From assembly GCA_018818885.1 (NCBI GenBank), contig JAHIRB010000018.1:5041-69040 (forward strand): DNA of 64,000 nt, in the 5' to 3' direction. The notes below the pieces were generated by a model, which saw nothing but the letters and a program-made list of their open reading frames with translations, did not search any database and was not told where the DNA came from. Source of the stretch: Patescibacteria group bacterium. Its GTDB lineage: Bacteria; Patescibacteriota; Patescibacteriia; Buchananbacterales; SURF-54. This document shows positions 42,899 to 53,133 of this stretch, piece after piece. Numbering within the stretch: the first letter of the stretch is position 1; each line of letters starts with the position of its first letter. Position numbers and translations under genes: made by a program.

Positions 42899-43198
42899 TA
42901 ACGAAAAATTCGGGCTATAAACCCACTACTATTTTAACATATTTTACTCTTTTTTTAAAGACCATTTGTGGGTATTTTGTGGTTAAATAATTGGCTAAAT
43001 TAAGATAAAATAATTAAGATATTTCAGACATTCAAACTAGTCTTTTGCAACTTTTCTTACTTGACATAAATATCATTATACTATAGTATAAAATGTACCT
43101 GTAAATTATAAATTTCATAAGCTAATTAATCCCGCAAAGTGGGAGCTTGGTTCACAGAATTGAATCGGGTTAAAGCAATTTTTTTTATTGCATTATTT

Positions 43199-44581
43199 AT
43201 GACTAAAACTACAGATACCAAGAGTAAAAAAACAATTGATGACTCACAAAAAAGCGAGTTTAAGAAGTTAATGGAAACTGGTGATTTTGTTAAATTGCCA
43301 AATGTTGGTGATTTAGTAAAAGGTAAATTAATTACAATTTCCAAGTCCGAAGCTCATGTTGATATTGACGGCCTAACAACAGGTATTGTACGAGGACGCG
43401 AATTTTTTGATGAAGCCTCAGAAGCCAAAGGATTAAAACCCGGTGATGTTGTAGAAGCAACTGTTTTAGAATTAGAAAATGAAAACGGAGAAATGGAACT
43501 TAGTTTTAGATATGCTGGACATCAAAAAGCTTGGGAAGAATTAAATAAATTTTTAGAATCTGGTGAAGTAGTCAAGGCCAAGATTATGGATGCCAATAAG
43601 GGTGGTCTAATGGTCAAGATAAATATGGTGCAAGGATTTTTACCTGTTTCTCAACTTTCAACAGAACACTACCCACGTGTGCCTGGTGGAGATAAGAATA
43701 AAATTTTAGAAAGATTAAAATCATACATTGGACAAAGTTTTAATGTTAAAATTATTACTGCACAAGACGAAGAAGACAAACTTATAGTATCTGAAAAATC
43801 TGTTTGGGATGAACAGCAAAAAGATATTATTGCTAAGTTTAAAGTTGGAGAAAAGGTTGAAACAAAAATTACCGCAGTTACAGATTTTGGAGTTTTTGTT
43901 GAATTTGGTGAAAAGTTAGAAGGCTTAGTTCATATTTCCGAACTTGCATGGCAAAGAATTGATGACCCTAGATTACATTTTAAAGTTGGAGAAAAGAAAA
44001 AAGCAGAAATTATTACTGTTGATGGATCTAAAATATTTCTTTCCTTTAGAAAATTAATTCAAGATCCTTGGCACGATGTAGATAAAAAATACAAAATAGG
44101 ACAAATTGTAAAAGGAAAAGTTATCAAAACAAATCCATTTGGAGTGTTTGTAGAACTTGATGCTGATATTCATGGCCTAGCTCACATATCCGAACTTGCA
44201 GATAAACCAATTGCTAATCCAGACGAAATTGCAAAACCAGGCGATATGTTAAATTTTAAAATCTTATCTATAGAACCAGTCAATCACAGACTAGGCCTAA
44301 GTCTAAAAGGTGCAAAAGCAAAGTCAAAAACATTATCTAAGCAAGAAGTAAAGTCAGGCGAGGAAGTTAAGCAAGATGGAGAAAAGCCGAAATTAGTCGA
44401 AAAGGTTGATGCAGTTAATACAGTTGATAAAGATCAGGAGCAAAAAAAAGTTTCTGAAAAGTCAGAAACAAAAAAAGAGAAGTTAGATTCCAAAAGTCCT
44501 TCGACAAGCTCAGGACAAGAGAAAAAATCAGATACCAAAAGTAAAAAAGCTGGCAACAGCAAGGATGATGGCAAGAAATAA
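43199..44581 (+). CDS. rpsA: 30S ribosomal protein S1
   Basis: Four or five S1 domains (GxV...G.VHISE) and a K/E-rich C-terminal tail. Start set at the internal Met (MTKTTD). Confidence 0.85.
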   Translation: MTKTTDTKSKKTIDDSQKSEFKKLMETGDFVKLPNVGDLVKGKLITISKSEAHVDIDGLTTGIVRGREFFDEASEAKGLKPGDVVEATVLELENENGEMELSFRYAGHQKAWEELNKFLESGEVVKAKIMDANKGGLMVKINMVQGFLPVSQLSTEHYPRVPGGDKNKILERLKSYIGQSFNVKIITAQDEEDKLIVSEKSVWDEQQKDIIAKFKVGEKVETKITAVTDFGVFVEFGEKLEGLVHISELAWQRIDDPRLHFKVGEKKKAEIITVDGSKIFLSFRKLIQDPWHDVDKKYKIGQIVKGKVIKTNPFGVFVELDADIHGLAHISELADKPIANPDEIAKPGDMLNFKILSIEPVNHRLGLSLKGAKAKSKTLSKQEVKSGEEVKQDGEKPKLVEKVDAVNTVDKDQEQKKVSEKSETKKEKLDSKSPSTSSGQEKKSDTKSKKAGNSKDDGKK

Positions 44582-45109
44582 CGAAATTAGTGCATAAGGA
44601 AACAACATAGCAGCATTAAGATATAAAGCTAAAAGAATTAAAACAAGGCCTACTACTTGCATAAACATCTTAAACTTTCCCCAGATATTTGCCGAAATAT
44701 CAATACCTCTTTTTCTTCTGCTCCAACCAGTAATAATAAACGCAAATTCAAAAATAATTACTGTCATGGTAGTCCAAAAAAAGTATTTTATGGCAACGAT
44801 AATCAATGATGACCCAATTAGTAGTTTATCTGCTAAGGGGTCGAATGCTTTACCCCAGTCTGTAATTTGATTTCTTGTTCTTGCCATGGAGCCATCAATA
44901 GCATCAGTTAAAGCTACACCAATTAAGAAAGGTACACCAATTGAATAGTTTTCTAGCCATAAAAGATAAACAACAATTGGGGATAGTACAAATCGTAATA
45001 TTGTGACATGATTTGGCTTAATCCATTTTGGGATAAATGGCAAAATTGTGTATTTAAGAATAAAGTCTTGCGGATACAATTTTGGGCTAGAATTAGATAA
45101 GTTTTGCAT
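44528..45109 (-). CDS. CDP-alcohol phosphatidyltransferase (PgsA-like)
   Basis: DAIDGSMARTRNQITDWGKAFDPLADK (D-G-x2-A-R-x8-G-x3-D-x3-D). 3' end overlaps rpsA by 54 nt. Confidence 0.75.
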   Translation of the reverse strand: MQNLSNSSPKLYPQDFILKYTILPFIPKWIKPNHVTILRFVLSPIVVYLLWLENYSIGVPFLIGVALTDAIDGSMARTRNQITDWGKAFDPLADKLLIGSSLIIVAIKYFFWTTMTVIIFEFAFIITGWSRRKRGIDISANIWGKFKMFMQVVGLVLILLALYLNAAMLFPYALISLFLAIILAVASFFTFGI

Positions 45110-48103: not shown

Positions 48104-49834
48104 ATGACTCAAATAAATCCAAAAGCTCCCCTGCCTTCTAATATGCCAGAGATATCATCAGAAGAGGTAAAAGAAAAGTATAAAAAGAAAATGTTTGATA
48201 TTCGTATTAGACAGAAAGAAACAGAATCTAACGAAATTGCCAGACAGATGGGTATACAACATATTAATTTAAAAGCTTTTCCTATTAGTCCGGAAACTTT
48301 AACTACGATAGAAGAAGAAACTTCTAAAAAACTTCAAGCGATTTGTTTTTATCGTGATGACGATGCTATTAGGATAGGTGCAGTAGATCCAACTACAGCA
48401 GGAGTCAAAGAGGAAATTGAAGCAATTAAAGAAAGGACTGCCAAAAAAATTGTAGTTTATAAAATTTCCGAACACAGCTATGATCTTGCCTTTAAGTTGT
48501 ATGCCGTACTGCCAAAATTTAGAGAAGTATTAACAGGTGTAGAAATAACAGAAGCAGATGTTAAGCGATTTGAACAAGAACTCAAAACTTTTAAAGATTT
48601 AAGCACAGCACTTGAAAGAATAAATTTAACAGATATGGTTGCTTTGATTATCGCAGGAGCTATAAAAGTAGCTGCCTCTGATATCCATATCGAAGCAGAA
48701 TCAAAGGAAATAAAAATACGTTACAGAATTGATGGATTTTTACACGACGCTGCAACAATAAAAAAATCTTTATGGACTAAAATAATCGCTAGAGTAAAAC
48801 TTGTTGCACATCTAAAAATTAATGTTACCGATCGGCCTCAAGATGGACGATTTACAATTTTTATGGGAGAAGAACAAATTGATGTTAGAGTATCTACTGT
48901 ACCAACTGCTTACGGCGAAAGTGTAGTTATGAGAATTTTGATTTCTTCTAAACAAGGCTTAGCTTTTGAGGATTTAGGTTTAAGAGGTAAAGCTTTTATT
49001 GATCTAGAAGCAGAAGTGAAAAAACCAAATGGCATGATTATTGCCACGGGTCCAACTGGTTCTGGTAAAACCACTACACTCTATTCAATTTTAATGAAGG
49101 TAAACACACCAGGAAATAAAATATTAACTTTAGAAGACCCTGTTGAATATAGAATTTCAGGTATTTCACAAAGCCAAGTTGATGCATCTAAAGAATATAC
49201 TTTTGCCAAAGGCTTGCGTTCACTTCTTAGACAAGATCCAGACATAATTATGGTTGGTGAGGTTAGAGATTTAGAAACTGCAGACATATCAATTAACGCA
49301 GCACTAACTGGTCATCTTGTTACAACAACTTTGCACACTAACGATGCCTCTGGTGCAATTCCGCGTTTAATAGCAATGGGAGTAAAATCATTTTTATTAC
49401 CACCCGCACTTAATGCAATCATTGGACAAAGGCTTGTACGTAAGATTTGTCCTAAATGTAAAACAGAAATTGAGTTAGACAACAAATTAATGTCTACGGT
49501 AATGAAAATAATTGATATGATCCCTCAGGAATCTGGAACAAAACCAAAGAGTTTAAAAAATTTACAATTTTATAAAGGTAAAGGATGCGATTATTGCCAA
49601 GGTATTGGTTATAAAGGAAGAATTGGTATTTTTGAAATCATGACTATGAATCACGAATATGAACCTCTAATACTTTCTGGTCAGGTTTCAGAATACGATT
49701 TAAAAAAGATTGCTTTAAAGCATGGCATGGTAACCATGGTGCAAGATGGATTGCTTAAAGCAATGGACGGTTTAACATCAGTTGAAGAAGTATTTAGAGT
49801 AGCAAAAGATATTTCTGGTTTGTTGGGTGATTAA
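48104..49834 (+). CDS. pilB: type II/IV secretion ATPase, GspE/PilB family (type IV pilus assembly ATPase)
   Basis: Walker A GPTGSGKTTT, Asp and His boxes, and a C-terminal tetracysteine CPKC...CDYC. 576 aa. Confidence 0.85.
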   Translation: MTQINPKAPLPSNMPEISSEEVKEKYKKKMFDIRIRQKETESNEIARQMGIQHINLKAFPISPETLTTIEEETSKKLQAICFYRDDDAIRIGAVDPTTAGVKEEIEAIKERTAKKIVVYKISEHSYDLAFKLYAVLPKFREVLTGVEITEADVKRFEQELKTFKDLSTALERINLTDMVALIIAGAIKVAASDIHIEAESKEIKIRYRIDGFLHDAATIKKSLWTKIIARVKLVAHLKINVTDRPQDGRFTIFMGEEQIDVRVSTVPTAYGESVVMRILISSKQGLAFEDLGLRGKAFIDLEAEVKKPNGMIIATGPTGSGKTTTLYSILMKVNTPGNKILTLEDPVEYRISGISQSQVDASKEYTFAKGLRSLLRQDPDIIMVGEVRDLETADISINAALTGHLVTTTLHTNDASGAIPRLIAMGVKSFLLPPALNAIIGQRLVRKICPKCKTEIELDNKLMSTVMKIIDMIPQESGTKPKSLKNLQFYKGKGCDYCQGIGYKGRIGIFEIMTMNHEYEPLILSGQVSEYDLKKIALKHGMVTMVQDGLLKAMDGLTSVEEVFRVAKDISGLLGD

Positions 49835-49846
49835 ATCAACTAAAAA

Positions 49847-49877
49847 AACACCTTGATAGTTTATAGGTGTTTTTTGT
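49847..49877 (+). terminator. intrinsic terminator AACACC-TTGATAGTTTATA-GGTGTT plus T6
   Basis: A-run, 6-bp stem, TTTTTTG. Confidence 0.5.
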
Positions 49878-49945
49878 ATTGAGGGATTGACATATAAATG
49901 ATATTTTGATAAGATTTTTTTGCGCGTTTAGAGAGGGGTGGAAAA

Positions 49946-50302
49946 TTGAAAAGCCAGAGTACAAAGAAGAAAGTGTCGAAGCGAATGATAAGAGTCTTAA
50001 CTTTAAGTAATATTCTTAAATTATTTCCCAAAACTCCAGAAGGCAGAAGGGCTAAGAATGCATTTCTGCAGCATTGTAAAAACTATTACCTTGAGAGAAA
50101 AAGGATGGAACAAGATCAGATTGCTAATCAAGAAACAAAAAATCCACAACGTGCAATATATCATGGACAAATTATGTCAATATTTGCATTATTACGACTA
50201 GTGCCCGGTGCAGAAAAAAAATGTCCTGCCTATAGCAAGGATCAAGTCGGTGATGCAGTAATGAAATGGTTTGCTATCAATGGCTCAGTAGATTCAAGCT
50301 GA
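49946..50302 (+). CDS. small basic protein, paralog of the convergent gene 50294-50803
   Basis: 118 aa. TTG start with a GAGGGGTGG SD. Shares FPKTPEGRRAKNAFLQHCKNYYLE with FPNTKDGRAAKDNFLKLCREYMEE of the partner. Confidence 0.4.
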   Translation: MKSQSTKKKVSKRMIRVLTLSNILKLFPKTPEGRRAKNAFLQHCKNYYLERKRMEQDQIANQETKNPQRAIYHGQIMSIFALLRLVPGAEKKCPAYSKDQVGDAVMKWFAINGSVDSS

Positions 50303-50803
50303 GCCATTCTTTTTTTTAGAATTTTTGTCTTTTTGTATCTCTTTTGCTAAGTCGGGATCAACAAACATTTCATCTTCCTTTATTCTATTATATACACCAT
50401 TTTTATTTGTTTTACCAAAATCTACAACTTTAAAATATCTATCTAATATTTCTGTAATATAATTTTTATCTCCAAGTCTTGAAAATAATTCAATATTACT
50501 TACTCTACTTGAGGTAGATAATTTACCAATAATACTACGGATATCATTATGCTTTGCTGCGCGTTGTTTTCCATGATGTTGTAAGCTACCACTAACACTT
50601 TGTCTTTTTTGTGCGGCAACTTCTTCCATGTATTCTCTACATAGTTTTAAGAAATTATCTTTTGCGGCTCTACCATCTTTAGTATTGGGAAAGTTATCTA
50701 GTAAAGCATCCATATCAGCAATAGGTAGTTCAGGATTTAGATTTCTTAGATCAACAAATTCTTGAGGAGGGGGTTGTGGTATTTGTTCGAGTCTTCTAGC
50801 CAT
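50294..50803 (-). CDS. hypothetical protein, paralog of 49946-50302; last gene of the tsaE transcription unit
   Basis: 169 aa. Start 3 nt after the tsaE stop. 9-bp convergent 3' overlap with its paralog. Confidence 0.45.
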   Translation of the reverse strand: MARRLEQIPQPPPQEFVDLRNLNPELPIADMDALLDNFPNTKDGRAAKDNFLKLCREYMEEVAAQKRQSVSGSLQHHGKQRAAKHNDIRSIIGKLSTSSRVSNIELFSRLGDKNYITEILDRYFKVVDFGKTNKNGVYNRIKEDEMFVDPDLAKEIQKDKNSKKKNGSA

Positions 50804-50806
50804 ATA

Positions 50807-51259
50807 TTAAGTAATATTAATAATTCTTGTATTTTGATTATTTCCCAACTCTAACAAAATTTTCTTAGTTTGTCTAGGAAGGATTTTTTTTATTTTTTCT
50901 GCCCATTCGATCACTACAACAGTATTTTTATCTCCAAAATATTCATCTGCACCAATATCAACAATTTCTTGTGGAGATTTAGTTCTGTAACAATCGATAT
51001 GAACAAATTGACGAATGTAAATCACGCCTCGGCGAGACGCCTTCGGCGAATTAACTTGGTATACTTTCATCAACACAAAAGTAGGGCTGGTAATTATTTT
51101 TTTTATTCCTAAACCTTGCGCGATGCCTTTGATCAACGTGGTCTTCCCTGCACCCAAATCTCCTGTTAAAGCCAAAACTTCGCCATCCTTAAGACCGCTT
51201 GCAATTTTTTTACCTAAAGCTATTGTCTGTTTTTCTGATGTAGTAATATGTTTTGACAT
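50807..51259 (-). CDS. tsaE: tRNA threonylcarbamoyladenosine biosynthesis protein TsaE
   Basis: Walker A LTGDLGAGKTTL. 150 aa. Confidence 0.8.
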   Translation of the reverse strand: MSKHITTSEKQTIALGKKIASGLKDGEVLALTGDLGAGKTTLIKGIAQGLGIKKIITSPTFVLMKVYQVNSPKASRRGVIYIRQFVHIDCYRTKSPQEIVDIGADEYFGDKNTVVVIEWAEKIKKILPRQTKKILLELGNNQNTRIINIT

Positions 51260-51281
51260 ATTTAATTATATTTGGTAAATT
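51253..51281 (+). promoter_or_regulatory. candidate promoter TTGACA-17-TAAATT for ORF 51323
   Basis: TTGACA at 51253-51258 (overlapping the tsaE start codon on the other strand), TAAATT at 51276-51281. Confidence 0.3.
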
Positions 51282-51322: not shown

Positions 51323-51619
51323 ATGGGAACTGAACAGGTAGTAACTTGCCAGCCACTTCCGACCTCATATGTGGGTCATGGCATGAAAACATTGAAAGCC
51401 CAGATGGCACTCATCAAAGAAGCAGTAGAACAACAGAACAAGGGCATAAGAGGTTGTCAATTTGAAGGTGTTGCAGTTCTCCAAGTCTCTATTGATGGCA
51501 ACTGCCCAAATCCAGATTGTGGCTCATCGAATATTAATTCGCACAAAGCCCCGGCGGAATTTGGATTGGATGCCAGAAGATGTAAATGCAACGATTGCAG
51601 AACAGTTTTTAATTTTTAA
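51323..51619 (+). CDS. zinc-ribbon small protein (SD-bearing small-ORF class) inserted between tsaD and tsaE on the opposite strand
   Basis: 98 aa. AAAGGAGG SD 6 nt upstream. NCPNPDCGS...CKCNDCRTVF. Confidence 0.5.
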   Translation: MGTEQVVTCQPLPTSYVGHGMKTLKAQMALIKEAVEQQNKGIRGCQFEGVAVLQVSIDGNCPNPDCGSSNINSHKAPAEFGLDARRCKCNDCRTVFNF

Positions 51620-51632
51620 CACTAGAATAATT

Positions 51633-52679
51633 CTAGTTCGGTTCAACTTTGACTTCACTCCACGGGGTGAAATCTTTTTTTAGTATTTTAAAATATGCTG
51701 CTGCAGCAATTATAGCAGCATTATCTGTACAAAGATTAAACGATGGGATCAGCAAGTCAACATTTACATTCTTTTTCATTTCATTGCGAAGTAATTTATT
51801 AGCAGTAACTCCACCGCCTAGTAAAATTGTTTTTACTTTATATTTTGTAGCAGCATCAATAGTTTTTTTAACTAGTACGTCAACTACTGCTTTTTCAAAG
51901 CTAGCAGCTATGCCAGTCTTTTGTTTTACAGACAATTTTTTTAAGCCTCTTACTTTATATAGAACAGAAGTTTTTATCCCAGAAAAGGAAAAGTTGAAGT
52001 CTTTAGAATTAATCATACCGCGCGGAAAATCAAAAGCATCTGGTTTACCCTTTGTCGCCATTTTAGATATCACGGGGCCTCCAGGGTAGCCTAGGTTTAA
52101 TATTTTAGCAACTTTATCAAACGCTTCGCCAGCTGCATCGTCTAAAGTCTGGCCAATGTTTTTAAAACTGAATTTATCTTTCATGTAGATTAGTTCTGTG
52201 TGTCCGCCTGATACGATTAGTCCTATTGACGGGAATTTGATGGGTAGATCGGGCGCCTCTGCCCGATCGTTGCGATGGGACGCAGGGGCCCCTCCCACCC
52301 CACTAGGTAGCCAATTAGCATAAATATGTGCTTTTAAGTGGTTGACTGTTATTAGTGGTTTTTTCCAAACATAAGAAAGTACTTTAGCAGTTTCAGTGCC
52401 AACCAATAACGACGTTATTAAGCCAGGCTTATTGGTCACAGCAATATAATCAATTTTTTTTTGATTAACTTTGGCTTTAATCAAAGCTTGATTTAGAACT
52501 GGTAGCATGTTTTTTAAGTGATTTCTGGCTGCAACTTCTGGCACAATACCACCAAACTTCGCGTGAATCGCGATTTGAGAAGAAACAACATTACTAAGAA
52601 TTTTAAAATTGCCACGGTCAACTTTTATAACCGCGACGGCAGTTTCGTCACATGATGTTTCAATTCCTAAAATAATCAT
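51633..52679 (-). CDS. tsaD: tRNA N6-adenosine threonylcarbamoyltransferase TsaD
   Basis: MIILGIETSCDETAVAV, HxxxH metal motifs, 348 aa. The ATG lies 6 nt after a TATAAT, consistent with a near-leaderless mRNA. Confidence 0.9.
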   Translation of the reverse strand: MIILGIETSCDETAVAVIKVDRGNFKILSNVVSSQIAIHAKFGGIVPEVAARNHLKNMLPVLNQALIKAKVNQKKIDYIAVTNKPGLITSLLVGTETAKVLSYVWKKPLITVNHLKAHIYANWLPSGVGGAPASHRNDRAEAPDLPIKFPSIGLIVSGGHTELIYMKDKFSFKNIGQTLDDAAGEAFDKVAKILNLGYPGGPVISKMATKGKPDAFDFPRGMINSKDFNFSFSGIKTSVLYKVRGLKKLSVKQKTGIAASFEKAVVDVLVKKTIDAATKYKVKTILLGGGVTANKLLRNEMKKNVNVDLLIPSFNLCTDNAAIIAAAAYFKILKKDFTPWSEVKVEPN

Positions 52680-52761: not shown

Positions 52762-53133
52762 ATGACAAAAGATCGTCGGATATTCGGTACCAAAAAAACA
52801 AAAGTTTTACTGAAGGACGTCAAGAAGGGAGACACAATTGAGATACGAGTGCCTGTAGAAGACACTGAAACTGCTTTTGTCAAACCCGACGACAAGTCCT
52901 ACTGGATTGGCCTGGAGGTGATCACAGTAGTTGAAGGTATGATCAATGCCAAGATTGTCGAACCAGACGAGGTCAAAAGCGGATGCGAAGCCAATGTGTG
53001 GTTTCCAGAAGTTGAAGTAGGTGAACCCCTTAACTTATCTTGGACGCATGAAGTGTCGGAAGATATCGCATTCAGGATTCAGTCTGTCAACGAAATACTG
53101 CTCATTTCATTCAAAGAAGCAAAAGTCGGGTGA
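52762..53133 (+). CDS. small acidic protein of the SD-bearing small-ORF class
   Basis: 123 aa. AAAAAGGAGGGG SD 8 nt upstream. Terminator hairpin GAGGCGC...GCGCCTC at 53151-53186. Confidence 0.45.
   Translation: MTKDRRIFGTKKTKVLLKDVKKGDTIEIRVPVEDTETAFVKPDDKSYWIGLEVITVVEGMINAKIVEPDEVKSGCEANVWFPEVEVGEPLNLSWTHEVSEDIAFRIQSVNEILLISFKEAKVG

Follow-up and report, generated by a model that had tools for sequence, protein, structure and literature searches.

A convergent pair of small helical paralogs around a shared terminator hairpin in Patescibacteria

Two small neighboring genes of a Patescibacteria group bacterium run into each other tail to tail, share their last base pairs and encode proteins that resemble one another. 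Does this arrangement allow the two genes to regulate each other through antisense transcription, or does it reflect the packing of two related genes around a common end, and to what kind of protein family do the products belong? These questions were addressed in the whole stretch of 64,000 nucleotides around the pair (hereafter the window) and in related loci. The original prediction of a convergent pair, called A and B here, with a 9 bp tail-to-tail overlap (50294-50302) is borne out by the coordinates. So is the place of B as the last gene after tsaE, as the gene that ends 3 nt before the start of B matches Pfam TsaE strongly. The features of the region are listed below.

48104-49834, plus strand: PilB/GspE-like T2SSE ATPase gene (Pfam T2SSE, E=1.3e-117, and an MshEN domain), adjoining A upstream
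49842-49876, plus strand: probable terminator of the ATPase gene (A-run, CACCT...AGGTG stem, T6), read in the sequence
49887-49915, plus strand: promoter-like site of A (TTGACA, 17-nt spacer, TAAGAT, TG extension; 10/12 matches)
49930-49948, plus strand: Shine-Dalgarno GAGAGGGGTGG and TTG start of A; the Shine-Dalgarno block is identical in the related locus L004
49946-50302, plus strand: gene A (118 aa, pI 10.1, TTG start), short basic member of an all-alpha family
50279-50318, plus strand: shared terminator found by a terminator scan (stem AATGGCTCAG/CTGAGCCATT with an 8-nt loop at 50279-50308, then CTTTTTTTTA)
50294-50803, minus strand: gene B (169 aa, pI 9.25), longer member, extended at its N and C termini, last gene after tsaE
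50807-51259, minus strand: tsaE (Pfam TsaE, E=1.6e-37)
51633-52679, minus strand: tsaD (Pfam TsaD, E=1.8e-89), flank on B's side, upstream of tsaE

Since the stop of tsaE is so close to the start of B, the two genes are probably co-transcribed. Both genes of the pair are annotated publicly as 'hypothetical protein' (KKA15_02635 for A and KKA15_02640 for B), and no RNA family was detected by Rfam in the region.

Two other open reading frames were observed on B's side of the pair. The 373-nt gap between tsaE and tsaD holds a Cys-rich ORF of 98 aa on the plus strand (51323-51619) with CPNPDC and CKCNDC motifs, which by its sequence looks like a zinc ribbon. It is preceded by a strong Shine-Dalgarno sequence, AAAGGAGG, and by a promoter-like TTGACA-17-TAAATT at 51253-51281, has a GC content of about 44% against about 33% around it, and has no Pfam match. 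At the same junction, tsaE and tsaD abut with nothing between them in locus L003, and locus L001 holds a gene for an S8 peptidase of 1179 aa. The varied content of the junction in the window, L001 and L003 suggests that this site accepts insertions. Between tsaD and a DNA-alkylation-repair gene lies an ORF of 123 aa (52762-53133, plus strand), also with raised GC content (about 45%) and without a Pfam match; a 123-aa gene at the same position in L003 marks it as a conserved unknown.

A and B are true paralogs. BLASTP aligns them with 31% identity over 68 aa (E=1e-8), and when orthologs were added in MAFFT the alignment between them spans nearly all of A. The Smith-Waterman score of A against B is 87, and 5000 shuffles gave a mean of 28.8 (sd 4.9) and a maximum of 60 (z=11.9); this shuffle control had been set beforehand as the refuting comparison for the claim of paralogy, and none of the 5000 shuffles reached the observed score. 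The motif F-P-x-T-x-x-G-R-x-A-K-x-x-F-L-x-x-C-x-x-Y and a second common block, Q-R-A-x-x-H-x-x-I-x-S-I, were both found in A and in B as they had been quoted. Furthermore, A and B are genuine coding genes, both under purifying selection. The B orthologs P0002 and P0004, each 54% identical to B, are each located after tsaE and face an A ortholog (L001, L003/L004). The dN/dS ratio, estimated by the Nei-Gojobori method with synonymous sites near saturation, is 0.16-0.26 for A (against the L001 and L004 orthologs) and, with the same saturation, 0.30-0.35 for B (against P0002 and P0004).

To find the wider family, B, its ortholog P0002 and A were combined into a profile, and a search of 1.84 billion representative proteins with it gave 35 representatives at E<=1e-3, all of them 38-195 aa long. 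Their named sources are 'Patescibacteria group bacterium', 'Parcubacteria' or an unclassified bacterium. In an alignment of 33 family sequences, an F, a Y and an H are invariant, and the consensus reads L..LF[GP]..AK..FL.LC..Y, then RA..HN.IM.I..LS, then DR..V..MI.YF. A family member was defined as a helical protein of 95-195 aa carrying L..LF[GP]..AK..F..LC..Y, RA..H[NG].I[MR] and [DK][RD]..V..I..[YW]F; A and B both align through all three motif blocks. The family HMM recovers A (E=6.9e-30) and B (E=7.8e-37) and nothing else within the window. The FP-T-GR insertion in the motif noticed at first is specific to some clades, and the family-wide motif is shorter. Likewise, the description 'small basic proteins' holds for A and B and fails for the family, in which pI ranges from 4.9 to 10.9.

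That neither protein resembles a known family was upheld by searches of Pfam (E<=1), NCBIfam, PHROGs and PADLOC (E<0.001), in which A and B had no match. Over the 33 family members, Pfam gave scattered chance matches, none common to more than four of them, and NCBIfam, PHROGs and PADLOC gave no matching model over the aligned family members. Sequence-profile searches of the PDB matched nothing. A tblastn search of phage and plasmid collections also returned zero matches and thus no hint of an origin from a mobile element. Relatives were absent from GTDB genomes when searched with the B-clade profile; a collection scan with a broader sub-alignment gave three loci only, all single-copy, and a metagenome scan with the basic clade added one new locus, L017.

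Structure prediction supports a common fold. The AlphaFold2 model of A (pLDDT 86.7, pTM 0.74) has five helices, the model of B reaches a pLDDT of 83.1 and a pTM of 0.65, and the two models share the same predicted helix order. Foldseek found no significant match for either model in the PDB or for the B model in BFVD; its matches to Avd, ESCRT-I and TIPE were rejected as generic helical-bundle noise (E about 2 or above). No membrane segment or signal peptide is predicted in the family proteins. A and B belong to a Patescibacteria-only family of small cytoplasmic helical-bundle proteins that curated libraries do not describe. As a separate observation, a conserved tail motif follows the helical core in B (residues ~135-152) and in many single-copy members (alignment A3, columns ~215-250), for example ...IGRMMRDPEFFQPE and ...LGRMREGYFDD, with ...IKNNPEYFDPD in the B clade. 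Neither the short basic type nor the P0017/P0032 type has this motif, which by its sequence looks like a peptide docking motif.

The expression signals of A were compared among the closest loci. The proposed TTG start with a Shine-Dalgarno sequence is supported by the L004 ortholog, in which an ATG takes the place of the TTG, preceded by an identical GAGAGGGGTGG and a conserved promoter; in L001, GGAGGAGTCATG occupies the Shine-Dalgarno position. The public annotation of KKA15_02635 begins at ATG 49985, 13 codons later than TTG 49946, and gives a protein of 105 aa. In view of the ATG in L004 and the conservation of the Shine-Dalgarno sequence and promoter, TTG 49946 is the better start and extends A by 13 residues. 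The promoter-like site at 49887-49915 is the top-scoring one of the region, and its L004 counterpart reads TTGACA-17-TAATAT. The terminator-like element at 49842-49876, missed by a simple terminator scan because of its 11-nt loop, is present also in L004 by DNA alignment, and this probable terminator sets the ATPase gene apart from A.

At the other end of A, both stop codons and the entire 9-bp overlap fall within the element at 50279-50318. On the plus strand, positions 50279-50308 form an 11-pair stem (-17.1 kcal/mol) followed by CUUUUUUUUA; with its T8 tail, this hairpin qualifies as an intrinsic (Rho-independent) terminator for gene A. On the minus strand the same stem (-14.8 kcal/mol) is followed by UGAUAGCAAACC, which is not a U-tract, and a two-way intrinsic terminator was therefore rejected for the window. 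A minus-strand site at 50239-50225 was considered as a terminator for B and also rejected, since it scores z=-1.0 against shuffles and coincides with conserved EKKCPAY codons. The arms of the hairpin are palindromic and are read in the same frame on both strands, each encoding Asn-Gly-Ser, which explains why A ends in ...NGSVDSS and B in ...NGSA. The same 30 bases are thereby constrained by an RNA structure and by two protein C-termini, an example of compact convergent gene packing.

Comparison among loci separates the hairpin from the overlap. The 24-nt core of the hairpin is identical in L004, where the proteins are only 54-58% identical, and the L001 version has diverged; among these three sequences (window, L004 and L001), 3 of the 11 hairpin pairs are changed on both sides and none is broken. 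The 9-bp overlap of the reading frames is kept in L004. In L001, B is shorter and the frames lie 7 nt apart, with the hairpin and a T-run in A's direction still in place. The four distant pairs for which DNA was available have no ORF overlap (gaps of ~20-55 nt by gene calls in three of them), and in one of these loci, L009, the 25-nt spacer holds a true two-way terminator consisting of an A-tract, a stem and a T-tract. Each of the seven loci for which DNA was available has a stable hairpin at its junction. Hence the conserved object is the terminator, around which the ORF overlap comes and goes. Moreover, the window contains a second convergent pair, formed by an S1-domain gene (43139-44581, plus strand) and a CDP-alcohol phosphatidyltransferase gene (44528-45109, minus strand), with a 3' overlap of 54 bp (44528-44581) and a minus-strand terminator-like hairpin with T8 at 44469-44450, inside the coding end of the S1 gene. 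With this second pair, of unrelated genes, overlapping tails look like a habit of this compact genome.

A family member convergent with a small gene was found at eight loci (the window, L001, L004, L009, L011, L017, L018 and the P0035 contig), and in seven of them the partner is a confirmed member of the family. The pairs of the window, L001 and L004 consist of an A-type and a B-type gene, those of L009 and L018 of P0013 with P0032 and of P0036 with P0017, and that of L011 of P0039 with a partial partner; on the P0035 contig, the eighth locus, the convergent partner of 144 aa is a putative family member. Every confirmed pair joins a short, very basic member to a longer one. Within the very basic clade, all five members with visible context have a convergent partner, in four cases confirmed as family. 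A T2SSE gene adjoins the pair in each of the six loci whose flank is visible (window, L004, L009, L011, L017 and L018). The L004 ATPase is 87% identical to that of the window, and at the distant loci the T2SSE proteins of L009, L011 and L017 are 52-56% identical to it, with TsaD at 54%. The latter genomes are far from that of the window, and the convergent pairing is old.

On its far side the pair is less constant. The tsaE gene abuts B in the window, with the same tsaE-B order in L001 and L003, and an aminoacyl-tRNA synthetase gene takes this place in L009 and L018; tsaD is near the pair also in L001, L003 and L009. The paralog that faces the ATPase, short basic or long, differs between L009 (6001-6814) and L017 (3956-4865) on the one hand and L011 (2078-2723), L018 (858-1789) and the window (49946-50803) on the other; the pair has therefore turned round as one unit, with its genes kept together. 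In neighbor-joining trees the A, B, very basic 'FPK' and P0017/P0032 clades have 95-100% bootstrap, with no resolution of the deep branches. Mean Smith-Waterman scores place A closer to the FPK clade (81.6) than to the other type (59.0) and B closer to the long clade (89.1) than to the other type (68.8), which fits one old duplication; with the deep branches as they are, the sequences may also reflect two independent duplications.

Most other family members examined are single-copy within 3-8 kb to either side, or up to the contig end where this came first, and are located beside PNPase, YchF, TyrRS/PBP, the S12 operon, RuvB or RNase Y genes. Given these unrelated housekeeping neighborhoods, the family needs neither a partner paralog nor the ATPase. 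Two contexts were noted in addition. In L012 (1-10453), the genes around P0045 (150 aa) all point the same way over a long distance and have no Pfam matches up to an FtsK/SpoIIIE-type gene at the end; two of their products measure 1243 aa and 701 aa. This series, possibly a mobile or conjugative element, contrasts with the housekeeping surroundings of the other members. In L009, bAvd and reverse-transcriptase genes, parts of a diversity-generating retroelement, lie at 593-1969, about 4 kb from the pair. Their proximity is probably a coincidence, and Avd is also among the non-significant fold matches.

Taken as a whole, the account that we consider rather probable is that A and B are old paralogs arranged around a shared terminator, that their overlap is a by-product of packing, and that the two proteins act together. 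As the two frames reach into the hairpin, their 9-bp overlap follows from tight packing around the terminator. The hairpin and T8 would end A's transcript some 15-25 nt inside the last codons of B. B's transcript would meet the same hairpin without a U-tract and stop at or near the stem, where head-on encounters between polymerases could help. With both transcripts ending at the hairpin, the mRNAs of A and B would probably overlap only by roughly the hairpin itself. The proteins would then cooperate, in the simplest case within a hetero-oligomer that arose from an ancestral homo-oligomer; their action is possibly connected with the neighboring ATPase, as the gene neighborhood suggests.

It was suggested at the outset that the convergent overlap can serve for mutual regulation through antisense transcription. 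In a device of this kind, polymerase collision or a 3' RNA duplex cut by RNase III would impose reciprocal or fixed-ratio expression on the two genes. Several observations agree with such a device. The convergent orientation is kept in 8/8 pairs, including those that lie the other way round between the same flanking genes, and the fully complementary hairpin region is necessarily present in both mRNAs. In addition, B's strand has no U-tract after the hairpin and, inside A, offers only the weak terminator-like site at 50239-50225, so that B's transcript could read through antisense to A. Yet the canonical terminator of A, with its compensatory changes, lies exactly at the junction and should limit any long overlap from A's side. 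The overlap of the frames is missing in L001 and in the distant pairs, the spacer of L009 holds a two-way terminator, and unrelated genes in the same window also have overlapping convergent tails. An inverted duplication, moreover, remains convergent without any selection for regulation. We therefore regard an antisense device as unlikely. A module resembling type I toxin-antitoxin systems was rejected, since both partners are hydrophilic proteins (118 and 169 aa) under purifying selection with homologs elsewhere.

The joint action of the two proteins is a separate matter. A and B could be the leftover of an old inverted duplication, having separate jobs and staying adjacent through slow rearrangement alone. 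Elsewhere, single family members indeed function in a variety of contexts, charge and extensions differ strongly between the two types, and since the synteny of T2SSE, ValRS and TsaD is conserved as well, the whole block may just be stable. Against this, the other flank of the pair varies between tsaE and an aminoacyl-tRNA synthetase gene, with a peptidase gene or the Cys-rich insert between tsaE and tsaD, and despite an inversion of the pair as a unit its two genes have never been separated. The convergent partner found beside every very basic member with visible context also argues against a mere leftover, which we judge improbable. Joint action of A and B remains our preferred reading.

A more specific proposal makes A and B the subunits of an obligate heteromer that assists or regulates the PilB-like type IV pilus/competence ATPase in one branch of Patescibacteria, with expression coupled by the convergent layout through polymerase collision or a 3' RNA duplex at the shared terminator. 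A terminator and a separate promoter lie between the ATPase gene and A, and the two may be neighbors through inherited synteny, with no link in function. We hold such a factor to be very doubtful. If it were real, it would add a new member to the pilus-associated components, one whose layout itself controls the subunit ratio in an unusual way, and the faithful association of the pair with the ATPase gives a testable hypothesis, namely binding of A to B and of both to the PilB-like ATPase. Type IV pili are central to the episymbiotic lifestyle of Patescibacteria. A link to t6A synthesis through the neighboring tsaE and tsaD was rejected, since single-copy members occur in unrelated contexts and there is no similarity to TsaB. 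Finally, the idea that one or both ORFs are chance frames and their similarity a compositional artefact, which the AT-rich genome, the lysine-rich proteins and the TTG start of A might invite, is refuted by the composition-preserving shuffles, by orthologs in other assemblies with dN/dS well below 1, by the 35 related proteins of the profile search and by the confident AlphaFold2 models of both proteins.

The arrangement can be compared with several known systems. In E. coli, convergent genes were found by SEnd-seq to have overlapping bidirectional terminators (Ju et al. 2019), at which, according to a later preprint, head-on polymerase encounters have been proposed and clean 3' ends depend on the stem-loop (bioRxiv 10.1101/2022.10.23.513370). 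Like the E. coli gene pairs as the preprint describes them, A and B share one stem-loop at their junction, and their transcripts would overlap by about the length of the element. Unlike them, the frames of A and B run into the stem, a U-tract is present on one strand only in the window, and the two genes are paralogous; the A/B element itself is predicted from sequence.

The family itself is comparable with the 106 families enriched in CPR bacteria, which are mostly poorly annotated and among whose functions type IV pilus components including PilB and PilT were stressed (Meheust et al. 2019, PMC6744442). Like those families, that of A and B is lineage-restricted and consists of hypothetical proteins. 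For its proteins, neither a membrane segment nor a signal peptide is predicted, and any link with pili would be one of gene neighborhood. The family is one of very many uncharacterized lineage-specific families, and no unusual mechanism is indicated so far; its interest lies in confident predicted folds that have no sequence or structural relative, in the little-known Patescibacteria. With Avd/bAvd, which rank among the top Foldseek matches (target-normalized TM-scores of 0.41-0.55), A and B share the form of small basic helical bundles. They differ from it in that the Foldseek E values of 1.8-7.7 are not significant and Pfam bAvd (PF22296) gives no match, and no reverse transcriptase (RVT) gene lies beside the pair in the window.

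Adjacent pairs of small helical paralogs that form heterodimers are known, e.g., EsxA/EsxB (WXG100) and RicA/RicF (YmcA/YlbF), and these pairs are co-directional within one operon. Like them, A and B are small all-alpha paralogs (~100-170 aa) that have been kept adjacent over long evolutionary distances. Unlike them, A and B are convergent, have separate promoters and have no sequence match to those families. Convergent genes that share a terminator and adjacent paralogs are thus both known kinds of arrangement; what is new is this instance and its protein family.
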